DNA of 64,000 nucleotides, taken from contig CM059435.1 of assembly GCA_030390025.1 (NCBI GenBank), positions 53,568,001-53,632,000 on the forward strand, read 5' to 3'. The stretch is from Squalus acanthias. Its lineage: Eukaryota. The notes under the pieces are model-generated. The model had not been told where the DNA came from. It saw nothing but the letters and a program-made list of their open reading frames with translations, and did no database searches. Each line of letters starts with the position of its first letter. Within the stretch, counting starts at the first letter, position 1. The translations under genes were made by a program, and so were the position numbers. Below are positions 35,453 through 42,692 of this stretch, in pieces.

Positions 35453-35568
35453 CACGATGAGGACGATGGGGACGGTGAAGATGATGCGGAGGTGCAGCAG
35501 GAGTGCCTGCAGAAATTCTCCAGCCGAGATTACATAATGGAGCCACCTATCTTCAACACACTGAAAAG
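35453..35568 (+). CDS. NELFCD: NELFCD exon 2
   Basis: acag|HDEDDGDGEDDAEVQQECLQKFSSRDYIMEPPIFNTLK(R)|gtaact. 116 nt, phase 0 to 2. Confidence 0.95.
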
Positions 35569-35601
35569 GTAACTGAAACCCGCAGTTACAGACAAGCTTG
35601 G

Positions 35602-36585
35602 CACCAGTCTCACCCAGCACTGTGCCAGTCACACCCAGCACTGTGCCAGTCACACCTGACGCCAATGACACTCGACACTGTGCTAGTCACACCCAGCACT
35701 GCGCCAGTCACACCCAGCACTGTGCCAGTCACACCTGATGCCAATGACACTCGACACTGTGCTAGTCACACCCAGCACTGCGCCAGTCACACCCAGCACT
35801 GCGCCAGTCACACCCAGCACTGTGCCAGTCACACCTGACGCCAATGACACTCGACACTGTGCTAGTCACACCCAGCACTGCGCCAGTCACGCCCAGCACT
35901 GTGCCAGTCACACCTGATGCCAATGACACTCGACACTGTGCTAGTCACACCCAGCACTGTGCCAGTCACACCTGACGCCAATGACACTCGACACTGTGCT
36001 AGTCACACCCAGCACTGTGCCAGTCACATCTGACGCCAATGACACTCGACACTGTGCTAGTCACACCCAGCACTGCGCCAGTCACACCTGATGCCAATGA
36101 CACTCGACACTGTGCTAGTCACACCCAGCACTGTGCCAGTCACACCTGATGCCAATGACACTCGACACTATGCTAGTCACACCCAGCACTGTGCCAGTCA
36201 CACCCAGCACTGTGCCAGTCACACCTGATGCCAATGACACTCGACACTGTGCTAGTCACACCCAGCACTGTGCCAGTCACACCTGACGCCAATGACACTC
36301 GACACTGTGCTAGTCACACCCAGCACTGTGCCAGTCACACCTGACGCCAATGACACTCAACACTGTGCTAGTCACACCCAGCACTGTGCCAGTCACACCT
36401 GATGCCAATGACACTCGACACTGTGCTAGTCACACCCAGCACTGTGCCAGTCACACCCAGCACTGTGCCAGTCACACCTGATGCCAATGACACTCGACAC
36501 TGTGCTAGTCACACCCAGCACTGTGCCAGTCACACCTGACGCCAATGACACTCGACACTGTGCTAGTCACACCCAGCACTGCGCC
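35602..36585. repeat. Compound minisatellite (21-bp cactgtgccagtcacacccag interleaved with a ~37-bp variant)
   Basis: Direct tandem repeats starting about 33 nt after exon 2. Confidence 0.92.
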
Positions 36586-37599
36586 GCTCACAACTGGCAC
36601 CAGTCACACTCCGTATTGTACCAGTCGCACTGCGGACCAAGGCTTCCGTAGTTTTCTTATCCCCTTTGAGTATGTTTCAGCTATGAAAATAAAAATAGAA
36701 CAGATTTTTGTTCAAAAAAATCCTATAACCACAGCAACAATCTCTTTCCATCTGTTTCCTCTGCACCTTATAGTATTTAGCTTGAAGTTTGTGTGCTGTA
36801 CAGATGATAATCTGGACAAATGCGAGGGCGATCCCGTTCTCCAAGAGTTAAGCCCGCTCTATAACCAGTGCCTCCTGACCTTGTGGTGCATTTCCCCCGG
36901 TGTCACGTACCTGTTCTTCATGTAAGGACCTGGCCTGTGAATGTCCCCGGTTGAGATCAATTCATTTGGCACAGACCAGTATTGAACCTGTGTGCCTCAG
37001 TACCGCACAGGGCGGGGCCTTTACCCGCGAGAATGATATGCTGATAGGGTTAGATGAAGAGTGGTGGGAGGAGGCTCGTTTGGAGCATAGACCCCGGCAT
37101 AGACTAGTTCGGCCGACTGAAAGAAAGAAAGACTTGCATTTATATAGCGCCTTTCACGACCACCGACGTCCCAAAGCGCTTTACAACCAATGAAGTACTT
37201 TTTGAAGTGTAGTCACTGTTGTACTGTAGCAAACTGTTGTAACAGGAATGGCCTGTTTCTGTGCTGTAAATTCTATGTAATAGGCCATTGGGGAGCTCGG
37301 TATTGAGTTTTAAAGCTGGAGCAAGGATCAGCTTCCAGGCCTGGGAATGATGCTGATCGATGCACTGGCAGCCAGCGACACCTGCTGGTTGTCCGGGAGC
37401 ATAAGCCTACTCTGAGGCATATGCCCACTCTGAGACCTGACTTGGCTACCAATCCAGTGAAGGGAAAAGATAAATCTCTCCTCACAAATGAACAAATACT
37501 GAAAGTATTCTCACTCCCTTCCATACCCCTCCACCAGCCAAAAAAAAGGTGGTTCCCTTTAACTTCATTTTTGTTTAATTTCTGTTGGATTATGCGCTA

Positions 37600-38500
37600 T
37601 TTTTTTGTAGAATCAGAAGTGTACGCAGGGAACAGAAATGGTGCCAGAACAGCACCCTGTGGGACACCGCTGCCCACTTTCAACCACTCTGAGAAACTGC
37701 CCTTAACTCCCACTCTCTGCTTCCTCCCTTATAACCAGTTTTTAATCCACTTTGCTACGCTCCCCCTAATTCCATATCCTTTAATCTTCTCCAATAGTCT
37801 CATGCGTGGTGCCTCATCAAAGGCTTTCTGAAGGTCCATGTACACCACATCCACTGCATTCCCCCCTCCACCACATCCGTCACCTCCTCAAAGAACTCTT
37901 ATCGAGTTTGTCAAGCACGATCTTGTTTTCAGAAATCCCGGTTGGCCGCTTCTAATTATTTTCCTCTTCATCTAGATATTTATAATTTTATTTTTTAATT
38001 AAAAATTTCAAAATTTCCTCTAGCACAGATGTTAGTCAATTTGGCCTGTAATTACCTGGATAAGTCCGGTCTCCCTTTTTTTTAAAAAATGGGCACTACA
38101 TTGGCCACTCTCCAGTCCTCTGGCACACATTCAACTCTCAACAAAACTCTAATTTCTAGAGACTCTGCTATTTTTTCACCCATATCCAAAGCATTGATGT
38201 ACACTCCCTTTTTACATAACATGTGGAGATGCGTTTGAAATTCAATCTAGCTTTTGGCATCTTGTTAGTTGGTTAAAACCCTTTCAATAACTAAAGACTC
38301 TTGAGACCAGTGAACGGTCCCAGAACTGAACCCAGTGATACCCACCTCCAGACACTCTGAGGAACTGCCCCATACTCCGACTCACTGAGTCCTCCCTTCT
38401 GACTACTTTTTAAAATCTAACTTGCCATCCTTCCCCTGATTCCATAGCCCTTGATCTTCTTCTGTAATCTCCTGTGTGTGGGTACCTTGTCAAAGGCTTT
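37600..38500 (-). mobile_element. Decayed CR1 RT fragments
   Basis: Reverse-complemented GVPQG, KAFD and FFEEVT-like segments. Confidence 0.55.
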
Positions 38501-39052
38501 CTGGAAACAAAAAGCTGGGATGTTGGACATCGTGCGAGTTTGCAGTACGTGTTCCTGACCACAGTGTGTCGCCAAACTTCCAACTATTTTATCTACACAA
38601 GAATTCCAAATCCCGACATTCAACAACGTTCATTCTGGAGATGTTATGTTGGTACAAGTTATTGAAAAGGTTTTGTCAAACTAAAAACATATGAAAACCT
38701 AGATTGAATTTCAATCCCAACCCAGCCATGTTGAGTAAAAATTGAGTTTTACTGGTTCTAATTCAGTGCCTTCTGAATTATTCCTGATATACAGGTATCA
38801 GTCAGCTGAGCCTGAGAAAAATATCGGAGTTGTCTCTGACTGTCACACCAACACTGGGGTCTGAACAGCCCTTTTCATACGCTACACGACTTTTGGAGTG
38901 CCACTCAGGCTTCGTAGGTAACCATCCAGGAAAAATAATACAAGTCACAAAATACAGAGCAGTCTCTGCACTGACCTCGAGAGCAGGGGTGGGCAATTAT
39001 TTGGGCTGGAGGGCCATTAACAAGTTTGGGTGAGCTGCTGAGGGCCGCACAC

Positions 39053-39185
39053 CAATGTTCCTCCTAAGGTGTGTGGCTGCGGACCAATCACGAGGTCCAT
39101 GCAGGCAGCTCACCAGCTCCTGCCGCTGTGCGGTCACGCAGCATATTTAAAGGGACCACGCGCGGAAAAAAATTAGGGAACATTG
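39053..39185. mobile_element. Nested 133-bp hAT MITE
   Basis: TIR CAATGTTCC...GGAACATTG with a perfect 8-bp TSD ccgcacac (39045-39052 and 39186-39193). Confidence 0.85.
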
Positions 39186-40307
39186 CCGCACACATAAAAT
39201 GAATTGTGTTAACAACAGCTACCATTAAAATTTGTTATGGCATTTATTGTATAAAGAAACCTTCACGTCATTTCAACACTTAATAAAATTCACAACACTT
39301 ACTAACATGCTGATGAACGTGATACAGGTTTACGAGTCACATTGAAAAGTGCTCGGTCTGTTTATTTCAAATGGTCTAAAATTAACTTCATTCTTATAGT
39401 GGAAAATGAGAGATCGATTCTAATTCCACTGGCAATTATAAACAAGGTATAAAGGTGTTAAATTATAATCAAGGATAAAATCATTGATCCAACCTTTAAA
39501 AATTGCACATGAAAGTGCTACTTTGATGATTTTGAAACCTCGCTAAGAAATAATTAGGTGACTCGGAAAATGATTTATGCCGCAAATTGCGCCCCAGGTC
39601 AGCCATCAAATTGGGCTTGTTCAATGTCAACGTGCGATCACTCCTGAGGAAAGCCAAGACGCCGATAGAGTTTGCGGACTTTCAATTGAGAATGACCACC
39701 AGTAATGCACCATTATAAAGCACAGTTCATCCCCGAGTGCTATTTATTACTAGGACTGGCCAACAACATAAATCTCTACAACCCTCTTCCAGTCGTGACA
39801 ATAACCTTAAATTGTTCGTGCTATGGGGACAAAGGGCTTAAATAAAAACAGTCCAATGTCCAATATACCCGGGCCCATTTAGATATGCCTCCACTATGCT
39901 AATCAAGTGGGATAATATTAAAACGCGTGAATAATTGTGCAAGAATTAATAACCCCACTAACATGTGTGAGCAAAGTGTTAAACTGATAAATTTGAAACA
40001 GGCCAACTCATAGTGTTGATCATCATTCCCACTTCTACCCTCCCAATAATTTATAAACATAAATTCAGAAAGTAGTCAAATACTATCTTAAATACACAAA
40101 ATGTAGTGTAAAATAGTAAAATCTTCCATTACTAAATGAATGAAATGATTGATCGATCGATTATATGTTGTACTGAGAGTCTACGGGGCTGTTTGGCAGA
40201 GTGGCTCGAGTCTGGGGCCTCCGACGCGAGAGGTGTTCTTTTTTTAGTGTGCTGAGTATGGGAGCCCGAGGCTTCGCAAGGCCTGAACTACAATCGCGTG
40301 CCATTAC

Positions 40308-40452
40308 CTGAAGTCCTTGTGCTCCGGGATCCACTCCCGTGTCTAAGACGGTGATGAGACCTCCCCTGCCGTCGCACTCTGGGTACTGGGAGAGGAAAGA
40401 CACAGTGCCAGTCTCTTTCTTCGGTGAAAGAGTCCTCGAGATGAACAGCCAT
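40308..40452 (-). pseudogene. TPP2: Tripeptidyl-peptidase II exon 1 fragment (frameshifted, unprocessed)
   Basis: [48 protein letters not shown]|gtaatg versus the TPP2 N-terminus [38 protein letters not shown]. Similarity ends at a GT donor. Confidence 0.88.
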
Positions 40453-40627
40453 GACTCGACTCAGGCTAATGTGCAGCTCGAGCTCTGGCTCGCGTTCTAT
40501 TTCTGTCCCGCCCAGCGGGCCAGATGGAATGAACTGACGGGCCGTATTTTGCCCACCACTGCTCTAGAGCTACTGTCTCCTTTACTATACACACGCTGAC
40601 CCCGAGAGTTACCGTCTCCTCTAATAC

Positions 40628-42556
40628 ACACTGACCCTGGGCCGTGAGGGATATGACAGTGACTGACCCCGGGCCGTGTGGGATATGATAGTGACTGACC
40701 CTGGGCCGTGTGGGATATGACAGTGACTGACCCTGGGCCGTGTGGGATATGACAGTGACTGACCCCGGGCCGTGAGGGATATGACAGTGACTGACCCCGG
40801 GCCGTGTGGGATATGACAGTGACTGACCCTGGGCCGTGTGGGATATGACAGTGACTGACCCTGGGCCGTGTGGGATATGATAGTGACTGACCCTGGGCCA
40901 TGTGGGATGTGATAGTGACTGACCCTGGGCTGTGTGGGATATGATAGTGACTGACCCTGGGCTGTGTGGGATATGATGGTGACTGACCCTGGGCCATGTG
41001 GGATGTGATAGTGACTGACTCTGGGCCGTGTGGGATATGACAGTGACTGACCCTGGGCCGTGTGGGATGTGATAGTGACTGACCCTGGGCTGTGTGGGAT
41101 ATGACAGTGACTGACCCTGGGCCGTGTGGGATAAGATGGTGACTGACCCCGGGCTGTGTGGGATAAGATGGTGACTGACCCTGGGCCGTGTGGGATATGA
41201 CAGTGACTGACCCCGGGCTGTGTGGGATATGATAGTGACTGACCCTGGGCCATGTGGGATATGACAGTGACTGACCCTGGGCTGTGTGGGATATGACAGT
41301 GACTGACCTTGGGCCGTGTGGGATATGATAGTGACTGACCCCGGGCTGTGTGGGATATGATAGTGACTGACCCTGGGCTGTGTGGGATATGATGGTGACT
41401 GACCCTGGGCCGTGTGGGATATGACAGTGACTGACCCCGGGCTGTGTGGGATATGATAGTGACTGACCCTGGGCTGTGTGGGATATGATGGTGACTGACC
41501 CTGGGCCGTGTGGGATATGATAGTGACTGACCCTGGGCCGTGTGGGATATGACAGTGACTGACCCCGGGCTGTGTGGGATATGATAGTGACTGACCCTGG
41601 GCCGCGTGTGATATGACAGTGACTGACCCTAGGCCGTGTGGGATATGACAGTGACTGACCCCGGGCCGTGTGGGATATGATAGTGACTGACCCTGGGCCA
41701 TGTGGGATATGATAGTGACTGACCCTGGGCCGTGTGTGATATGATAGTGACTGACCCTGGGCCGTGTGGGATATGATAGTGACTGACCCTGGGCCGTGTG
41801 TGATATGACAGTGACTGACCCTGGGCCGTGTGGGATATGATAGTGACTGACCCTGGGCCGTGTGGGATATGACAGTGACTGACCCCGGGCCGTGTGGGAT
41901 ATGATAGTGACTGACCCTGGGCCATGTGGGATATGATAGTGACTGACCCTGGGCCATGTGGGATATGATAGTGACTGACCCTGGGCCGTGTGGGATATGA
42001 CAGTGACTGACCCCGGGCCGTGTGGGATATGATAGTGACTGACCCTGGGCCGTGTGGGATATGACAGTGACTGACCCTGGGCTGTGTGGGATATGACAGT
42101 GACTGACCCTGGGCCGTGTGGGATATGACAGTGACTGACCCTGGGCTGTGTGGGATATGATGGTGACTGACCCCGGGCTGTGTGGGATATGATAGTGACT
42201 GACCCTGGGCCATGTGGGATATGATGCGGAGATGCCGGTGTTGGACTGGGGTGGACAAAATTGAGAGGTCACACAACACCAGGTTATAGTCCAACCGTTT
42301 TATTTGAAATCACAAGCTTTCGGAGCTATCGATAGCTCCGAAAGCTTGTGATTTCAAATAAAACTGTTGGACTATAACCTGGTGTTGTGTGACCTCTCAA
42401 TCATGTGGGATATGACAGTGACTGACCCCGGGCCGCGTGTGATATGACAGTGACTGACCCCTGGCTGTGTGGGATGTGATCATGACTGACCCTGGGCCAT
42501 GTGGGATATGACAGTGACTGACCCCGGGCTGTGTGGGATATGATGGTGACTGACCT
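40628..42556. repeat. 32-bp minisatellite (gtgactgaccctgggccgtgtgggatatgaca)n
   Basis: Direct tandem repeats, interrupted at 42225-42401, ending about 26 nt before exon 3. Confidence 0.95.
42225..42401 (-). mobile_element. Penelope-type fold-back insertion with a 142-bp palindrome
   Basis: Palindrome 42260-42401 centred on gctatc|gatagc, plus a 35-nt unpaired tail. Flanked by catgtgggatatga on both sides. Confidence 0.8.
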
Positions 42557-42582
42557 TGATTGTATATGTTTCACTTCCCCAG

Positions 42583-42692
42583 GTATTTCCAGGCAGGAGG
42601 CTCTCCAGAACATGTGATCCAGATGCTATCTGAGAATTATACAGCAGTAGCACAGACTGTAAACCTGTTAGCAGAGTGGCTGATTCAGACAG
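42583..42692 (+). CDS. NELFCD: NELFCD exon 3
   Basis: cccag|(R)[36 protein letters not shown](G)|gtaaca. 110 nt. Confidence 0.96.

Follow-up and report, generated by a model that had tools for sequence, protein, structure and literature searches.

A TPP2 first exon carried by a non-autonomous hAT element at many loci of a shark genome

How did the start of one gene, TPP2, come to lie antisense within an intron of another, NELFCD? A sequence-only reading of the locus had proposed a Pack-type hAT transposon that captured TPP2 exon 1 and perhaps used it as its own first exon. We followed up this proposal in the window, by which we mean the whole stretch of 64,000 nucleotides, and in the genome to which it belongs. 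As a result, we consider it highly probable (about 0.9) that the locus holds a non-autonomous hAT element with 766 bp of the TPP2 start as passenger cargo, that its family occupies at least 180 loci, and that it likely arose by one template-switch repair and was likely mobilised in trans by a Buster-type transposase.

The element, its host intron and its parent locus

Two plus-strand exons of NELFCD, recognised by the Pfam TH1 domain, lie on either side of the locus at 35453-35568 (start approximate) and 42583-42692, and TH1 was matched by all five of the plus-strand ORFs tested. The element is on the minus strand between these exons and is therefore antisense in NELFCD, as had been proposed, within an intron of about 35569-42582. 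It is plausible that this is 'intron 2' of NELFCD; exon 1 of that gene was not located. The same intron contains a 32-bp tandem repeat array just past the 5' flank of the element (40598-41200 onward).

The inverted arms at 38976-38996 and 40549-40569 each consist of an 8-bp TSD and a 13-bp TIR, and they bound an element of 1578 bp (38984-40561, minus strand), the length given in the sequence-only reading. The TSD reads CTCGAGAG on the 3' side of the element (38976-38983) and CTCTAGAG, of the form nnnTAnnn, on its 5' side (40562-40569), with one mismatch between the two copies. The 8-bp TSD and short TIRs beginning with CAG are those of a hAT element, and the pairing of the TIRs within one TSD argues against two independent elements.

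At its 5' end, the element has a transposon terminus (40519-40561) composed of the TIR (40549-40561) and subterminal DNA in common with siblings that are without TPP2; the window copy has an 18-nt deletion in this part. This 5' end may resemble MER58/Cheshire. There follow a captured leader (40453-40518), 66 nt directly 5' of the TPP2 ATG and thus 5'UTR by position, TPP2 coding exon 1 (40308-40452), and the splice donor with the first ~540 nt of intron 1 (39763-40307). On the minus strand, the ATG lies at 40452, followed by the donor CAG/GT at 40308/40307, whose GT occupies 40307-40306. The 3' internal DNA (39186-39762, minus strand) is found in siblings without TPP2 over its last ~140 nt, and no source was found for the remainder. 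The transposon 3' terminus (38984-39052) ends in the 13-bp TIR at 38984-38996. Between these two parts lies a nested 133-bp MITE (39053-39185), absent from the earlier reading, which is flanked by a separate 8-bp TSD, has short inverted ends and is present in a subset of the family copies.

Exon 1 measures 162 nt in the parent. The window copy has lost exactly 17 nt of it near 40426, in agreement with the frameshifting deletion of about this size that had been noticed. The ATG frame is shifted, and the frame after the deletion encodes a 42-aa peptide with the motif VLDTGVDPG, whose sole PDB match at E<=1 was Drosophila TPP2 (3lxu_X, E 1.8e-8). A protein search with this peptide as query gave no scored match. 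When shark TPP2 was compared with the window by tblastn, residues 9-57 were matched, which represent exon 1 only; no further TPP2 exon was detected, as the initial reading had stated. In a six-frame reading by eye of the consensus 3' part and of the composite arm described below, no transposase frame was found.

The genome contains two TPP2 genes, a canonical gene on C7 and a paralog on C6. For the canonical gene, a single intact exon 1 was found (C7:79129509-79129348; ATG at 79129509, 162 nt, CAG/GTAACG), situated 8.4 kb ahead of exon 2 (C7:79120827-79120955). Element bases 44-799 (window 40518-39763) align with G000:C7:79129575-79128810 at 84.5% identity, and in the 60 kb around the parent the window element has no other match. 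The cargo consists of 766 bp of the parent, namely 66 nt upstream of the ATG, exon 1 and ~540 nt of intron 1. The parent locus is without TIRs, the element ends being unmatched in the 60 kb around it. The TPP2 homology stops inside the TIRs of the element; homology running past them had been named beforehand as evidence against a capture. Since intron 1 and the donor are part of the cargo, genomic DNA was captured and the element is no retrocopy, a conclusion already drawn from the retained donor. In the parent, the 17-nt segment lost from the element is bounded by a 6-bp direct repeat. A TPP2 exon taken from this genome was closest to those of cartilaginous fishes (catshark 92%, zebra shark 89%, stingray 88%), which makes a shark the most likely host.

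Exons 1-2 of the canonical gene (79.12-79.13 Mb) and exons 3 onward (from 77.339 Mb) are ~1.8 Mb apart on C7. Assembly gaps at C7:79110527-79111026 and C7:77341620-77341819 bound the 1.77-Mb block between the two parts, and the split is likely a scaffolding fault; because of these gaps, it is from inference that we treat the parent as continuous. An exon 1 sought in C7:77.27-77.46 Mb was not there, and a degenerate pattern for the undeleted exon 1 gave no match because it was too strict, the parent reading PYQG. The C6 paralog was rejected as the source of the cargo, as its exon 1 is without DNA similarity to the element. This paralog (G000:C6:130982879-131079164) matches shark TPP2 at 58-85% over the first eight exons, retains the catalytic Asp and His motifs, and has a very GC-rich exon 1. 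Elements that we presume to be Harbinger-like, with Myb/SANT-like and transposase-like frames, are plentiful around both TPP2 loci.

Family size, a single capture and subfamilies

The initial reading had suggested a mobile cassette and had held that a single copy would argue against one. A DNA search with the element gave 1253 candidates, the best 40 of which were scored, and a search with the exon peptide gave 443, where 150 of the 150 scored passed; subtraction of the two TPP2 genes leaves 148 exon matches. An exact 20-mer spanning the deletion junction occurred 61 times (control, 0). As the two sets overlap in 29, there are at least 180 distinct loci, 157 of these 180 being on 23 large contigs other than C26. 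A capture-recapture estimate, rough and biased low, is ~310 loci.

We examined 53 copies, which comprised 13 top matches from the element and peptide searches and 40 hand-picked down the peptide list, a sample that leaves out most of the cluster on C26 and unplaced contigs described below. Both ends were present in 37/53 copies, with lengths of 474-1808 bp, and the other 16 were without one or both ends in the stretch examined. Matched 8-bp TSDs (<=2 mismatches) were found in 21 non-composite copies, all with different flanks, and TA occupied TSD positions 4-5 in 20 of them (nnnTAnnn). Distinct TSDs at so many loci uphold the suggestion of a mobile cassette.

Some copies have multiplied otherwise. 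Among 20 loci from the element DNA search, 11 had no 5' TIR and had flanks in common, and were therefore produced by segmental duplication and not by transposition. Copies that are 95-98% identical, mostly 5'-truncated and with common flanks, are clustered at G000:C26:39.7-43.4 Mb and on the unplaced contigs C3245, C394, C1989, C3439 and others; this cluster is a recently expanded segmental duplication. It would be in keeping with the view that the copies are segmental duplicates, or TPP2 retrocopies beside unrelated MITE ends, which we nevertheless regard as extremely improbable for the family. This view is refuted for dispersed copies, since in 21 of them the flanks differ and matching 8-bp TSDs enclose the element as a whole. 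In addition, the inclusion of intron 1 speaks against retrocopies, and the parent is without TIRs. Transfer of the TPP2 piece from another species is also very unlikely. hATs are known to cross species, and codon 5 of the consensus is Leu as in catshark TPP2, while the gene of this genome has Val. On the other hand, the consensus is 4.7% from intron 1 of this genome, below the copy-to-consensus distance, and the difference at codon 5 would simply be explained if the host gene changed later.

In 36 of the 37 full copies, the TPP2 match begins at 79129570-79129576, and in none does it extend further upstream. The 3' ends of the match fall into groups, 13 at 79128807-17, 6 at 79128887, 10 at 79129018-21, 7 at 79129109-25 and 1 at 79129344, which we read as nested deletions. 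The core of the 17-nt segment was found in 0/53 copies; the deletion is exactly -17 in 40/53, and the others range from -13 to -21, with six unmeasured. Exactly at the 5' switch point, 4 bp are common to the parent and a sibling element without TPP2. The parent differs from the family consensus by 4.7% and the copies differ from that consensus by 6.7% (median). Over the first 430 bases of the parent, a tree that placed it with 33 copies, omitting four short ones, and whose bootstrap had not settled, was star-shaped with a single supported inner branch. Taking into account that the copies have one 5' junction in common and are without the 17 nt, there was one capture and one frameshift before a star-like burst.

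A ~205-bp insertion in the captured leader, with motifs that we take to be ZNF143- and YY1-like, characterises a subfamily of 11/37 full copies. The start of this insertion was also seen as a loose end in organism D. Composite copies, which number 12/37 of the full ones, have an ~880-bp arm with its own 5' TIR before the pack (for example, G000:C5:108335180-108336063). In 5 of the 12 extended composite loci, the outer TIR has a TSD matching the 3' flank of the pack, and arm and pack moved as one unit. Two overlapping searches with the ~205-bp insertion (211 and 223 candidates, 30 of 40 scored in each) revealed no host source, all 60 loci examined being element copies. Likewise, no host source was found for the outer arm of the composite, where the 25 and 30 loci examined were arm copies, whole or truncated, or for the 3' interior, where 30/30 loci were element copies; a second search with the 3' interior gave mostly the duplicated cluster among the matches listed. 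Serial capture of host genes is therefore unsupported.

An exact 3' 30-mer occurred at 107 loci. Among the first 30 of these, 17 had TPP2 exon or intron sequence no more than 1.5 kb away, a single one had the leader only and 12 were without TPP2. Among the siblings are a ~770-bp element of the L353 type (1235 candidates), for which no TIR-free parent was found among 30 loci, and a ~1.4-kb element of the L358 type. The latter has a promoter-like interior, but is more plausibly a chimera that includes a second repeat, since 8/30 loci run on into a different common terminus.

The family was also present in runs of five other organisms (B, C, D, E and F), and is therefore likely older than those splits. 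In organisms B, C, D and E, contigs span the whole element and dozens of unlike flanks occur at its 3' end, and the run of organism F contains the same deletion joint as organism A. An insertion at this very site common to organisms C and E is only hinted at by a contig that reaches 26 letters from the flank into the element (threshold, 31 letters). For dating in years, the shark rate that we found was given per generation only (PMC10587355).

Decay of the TPP2 cargo and a proposed course of events

In the copies, non-CpG changes by codon position numbered 86/1947, 91/2230 and 90/1842 (0.044, 0.041 and 0.049). CpG sites differed at 19% as against 5% elsewhere, a rate ~4 times faster, and the ratio of observed to expected CpG was 0.92 in the parent and 1.07 in the consensus. 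The CpG and codon patterns would fit copies that are methylated and drifting neutrally. CAG/GT was kept in 39/53 copies and the ATG in 30 of the 42 scored, by our reading approximately what drift with CpG decay leaves. The TPP2 cargo looks like a passenger, in copies that are frameshifted and likely silent. The suggestion that the cargo serves as the element's own first exon found no support: no transposase frame was seen, the captured piece starts only 66 nt before the ATG, the frameshift is older than the spread, the codon positions change equally, and CpGs are lost faster as described above.

None of the runs listed as containing the sequence was recorded as RNA. Four runs that we guessed to be RNA each placed 84-113 contigs on this stretch, and few of those contigs reached 99% identity with the window copy. 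These contigs cover all parts of the element, and those listed as bridging the donor continue unspliced into the intron. Among the matches listed in the four runs, the donor showed no loose end, and the flank at 38600-38907 is without cover in the same runs; these two results point neither way. The contigs show that family DNA is present in those runs, most simply as intronic passengers, and rare splicing may occur.

A different view of the cargo accepts the same origin and makes of it a functional unit, a portable promoter and exon trap that aided the spread or made chimeric host transcripts. The CpG-island character of the 5' end and the many retained donors would agree with it, as would the exon present in every deletion subfamily seen, although the sample was chosen by exon, the contigs over all element parts in the runs guessed to be RNA, and the precedent of NUBPL in the bat element HelibatN3 (PMC4224331, PMC4778049). 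Promoter capture like that in HelibatN3 was not observed; the captured piece begins 66 nt before the TPP2 ATG, with nothing taken from upstream of -66. A promoter core may lie inside the captured piece. The faster decay of CpG sites, as expected of methylated DNA, the absence of a codon-position signal and the unspliced donor-bridging contigs also weigh against function, and a cut-and-paste element requires no transcript for moving. We therefore consider functional cargo improbable. By analogy, hundreds of CpG-island first exons with donors would be scattered in shark genomes and some copies could start or join host transcripts, a prospect that we rate as doubtful, if slightly less so.

For a passenger cargo, we propose the following course. 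A break in an existing non-autonomous hAT would have been repaired from the TPP2 exon 1 region, with a switch at the 4-bp microhomology, which can be a chance match. The founder would have lost 17 nt between the 6-bp repeats, and a burst would have come soon after. Subfamilies would have formed via internal deletions, the ~205-bp insertion, the nested MITE and the composite with an outer 5' end, and would have kept moving because only the ends were needed. The copies would then have been methylated and have decayed. An empty precursor with the exact 3' interior was not found, and we therefore infer the 3' junction and the template-switch step.

Relation to known gene-carrying transposons and the transposase

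Pack-TIRs are recognised by 100-5000 bp of host DNA inside one TIR element, an unambiguous TIR-free parent and capture at the DNA level. Here, 766 bp lie within one TSD, the parent is C7:79129575-79128810, and the donor was carried along with ~540 nt of intron 1. The 21 copies with distinct matched TSDs, among at least 180 loci, place the family in the multicopy class. The family is a genuine and old Pack-hAT of high copy number; among vertebrates, both that number and the presence of a full first exon with donor are unusual.

In a survey of 100 animal genomes, Tan et al. 2021 found 370 Pack-TIRs, concluded that most are repair accidents present in a single copy, and reported junction microhomology; four vertebrate cases were multicopy, the example described having three derived copies (PMC8277862). 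Pack-hAT-N8_XT of Xenopus tropicalis took a 291-bp piece of the CAPSL 5'UTR (PMC8277862). The shark family resembles it in being a hAT whose TIRs enclose host DNA, in the absence of TIRs from the parent, and in its distinct TSDs and junction microhomology. It differs from the example with three derived copies in occupying at least 180 loci, in carrying a coding exon together with its donor and intron, and in having several subfamilies. The main text of PMC8277862 does not contain the word 'shark', and a family of this kind would likely escape the filters described there (identity >=90%, unique top hit).

The closest case by cargo and scale is HelibatN3, a Helitron of Myotis bats, which bears NUBPL's promoter, 5'UTR and exon 1 together with a portion of intron 1 in about a thousand copies, with exon trapping shown experimentally (PMC4224331, PMC4778049). 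The cargo layout is near-identical, and both are amplified pieces of a housekeeping-type gene. HelibatN3 belongs to a different transposon class, being a rolling-circle element without TIRs or TSDs, and it differs also in carrying a promoter. Plant Pack-MULEs and Pack-TYPE elements are also non-autonomous TIR elements with GC-rich gene fragments and are often multicopy, but carry many cargo genes, whereas the vertebrate family studied here has one shown cargo gene (PMC8903248, PMC8277862). We found no report of the shark TPP2 element in the open literature, which was the scope of our survey as distinct from Repbase/Dfam, where an uncurated consensus may exist. The mass spread of gene pieces by cut-and-paste transposons seems to be rarely reported in vertebrates.

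The family shows that cut-and-paste elements are able, in a vertebrate, to multiply a captured first exon until it occupies hundreds of loci, and filters built on repeat-masked genomes would likely hide such families. Together with the parent, its copies offer a control, neutral and methylated, for the same 766 bp that TPP2 has kept as a CpG island, as well as a marker common to several shark species, and make the exon-trap power of captured gene 5' ends in TIR elements testable. They will also yield false TPP2 exon-1 matches in shark annotation and read mapping.

Concerning the transposase, the TSD consensus of Buster-family hATs, nnnTAnnn (PMC3517528), was matched by 20 of the 21 TSD pairs. 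The Buster-family hAT MITEs termed Mar likewise have an 8-bp nnnTAnnn TSD and short TIRs and are non-coding; they differ in that their partner transposase has been identified and in that no host gene cargo is described, as far as the available portion of the source extends (PMC3517528). No transposase partner was found among 30 hAT dimerisation-domain loci (of 150 scored, 639 candidates). None of the 30 had the TIRs of the element, and none matched it over more than 43 bp. Besides these 30 loci, the hAT dimerisation-domain search returned dozens of matches with equal score and open frames of up to ~650 aa, for example at G000:C5:73156778, C7:26902566 and C8:91046587. These equal-scoring matches suggest a young, maybe recently active, hAT family.
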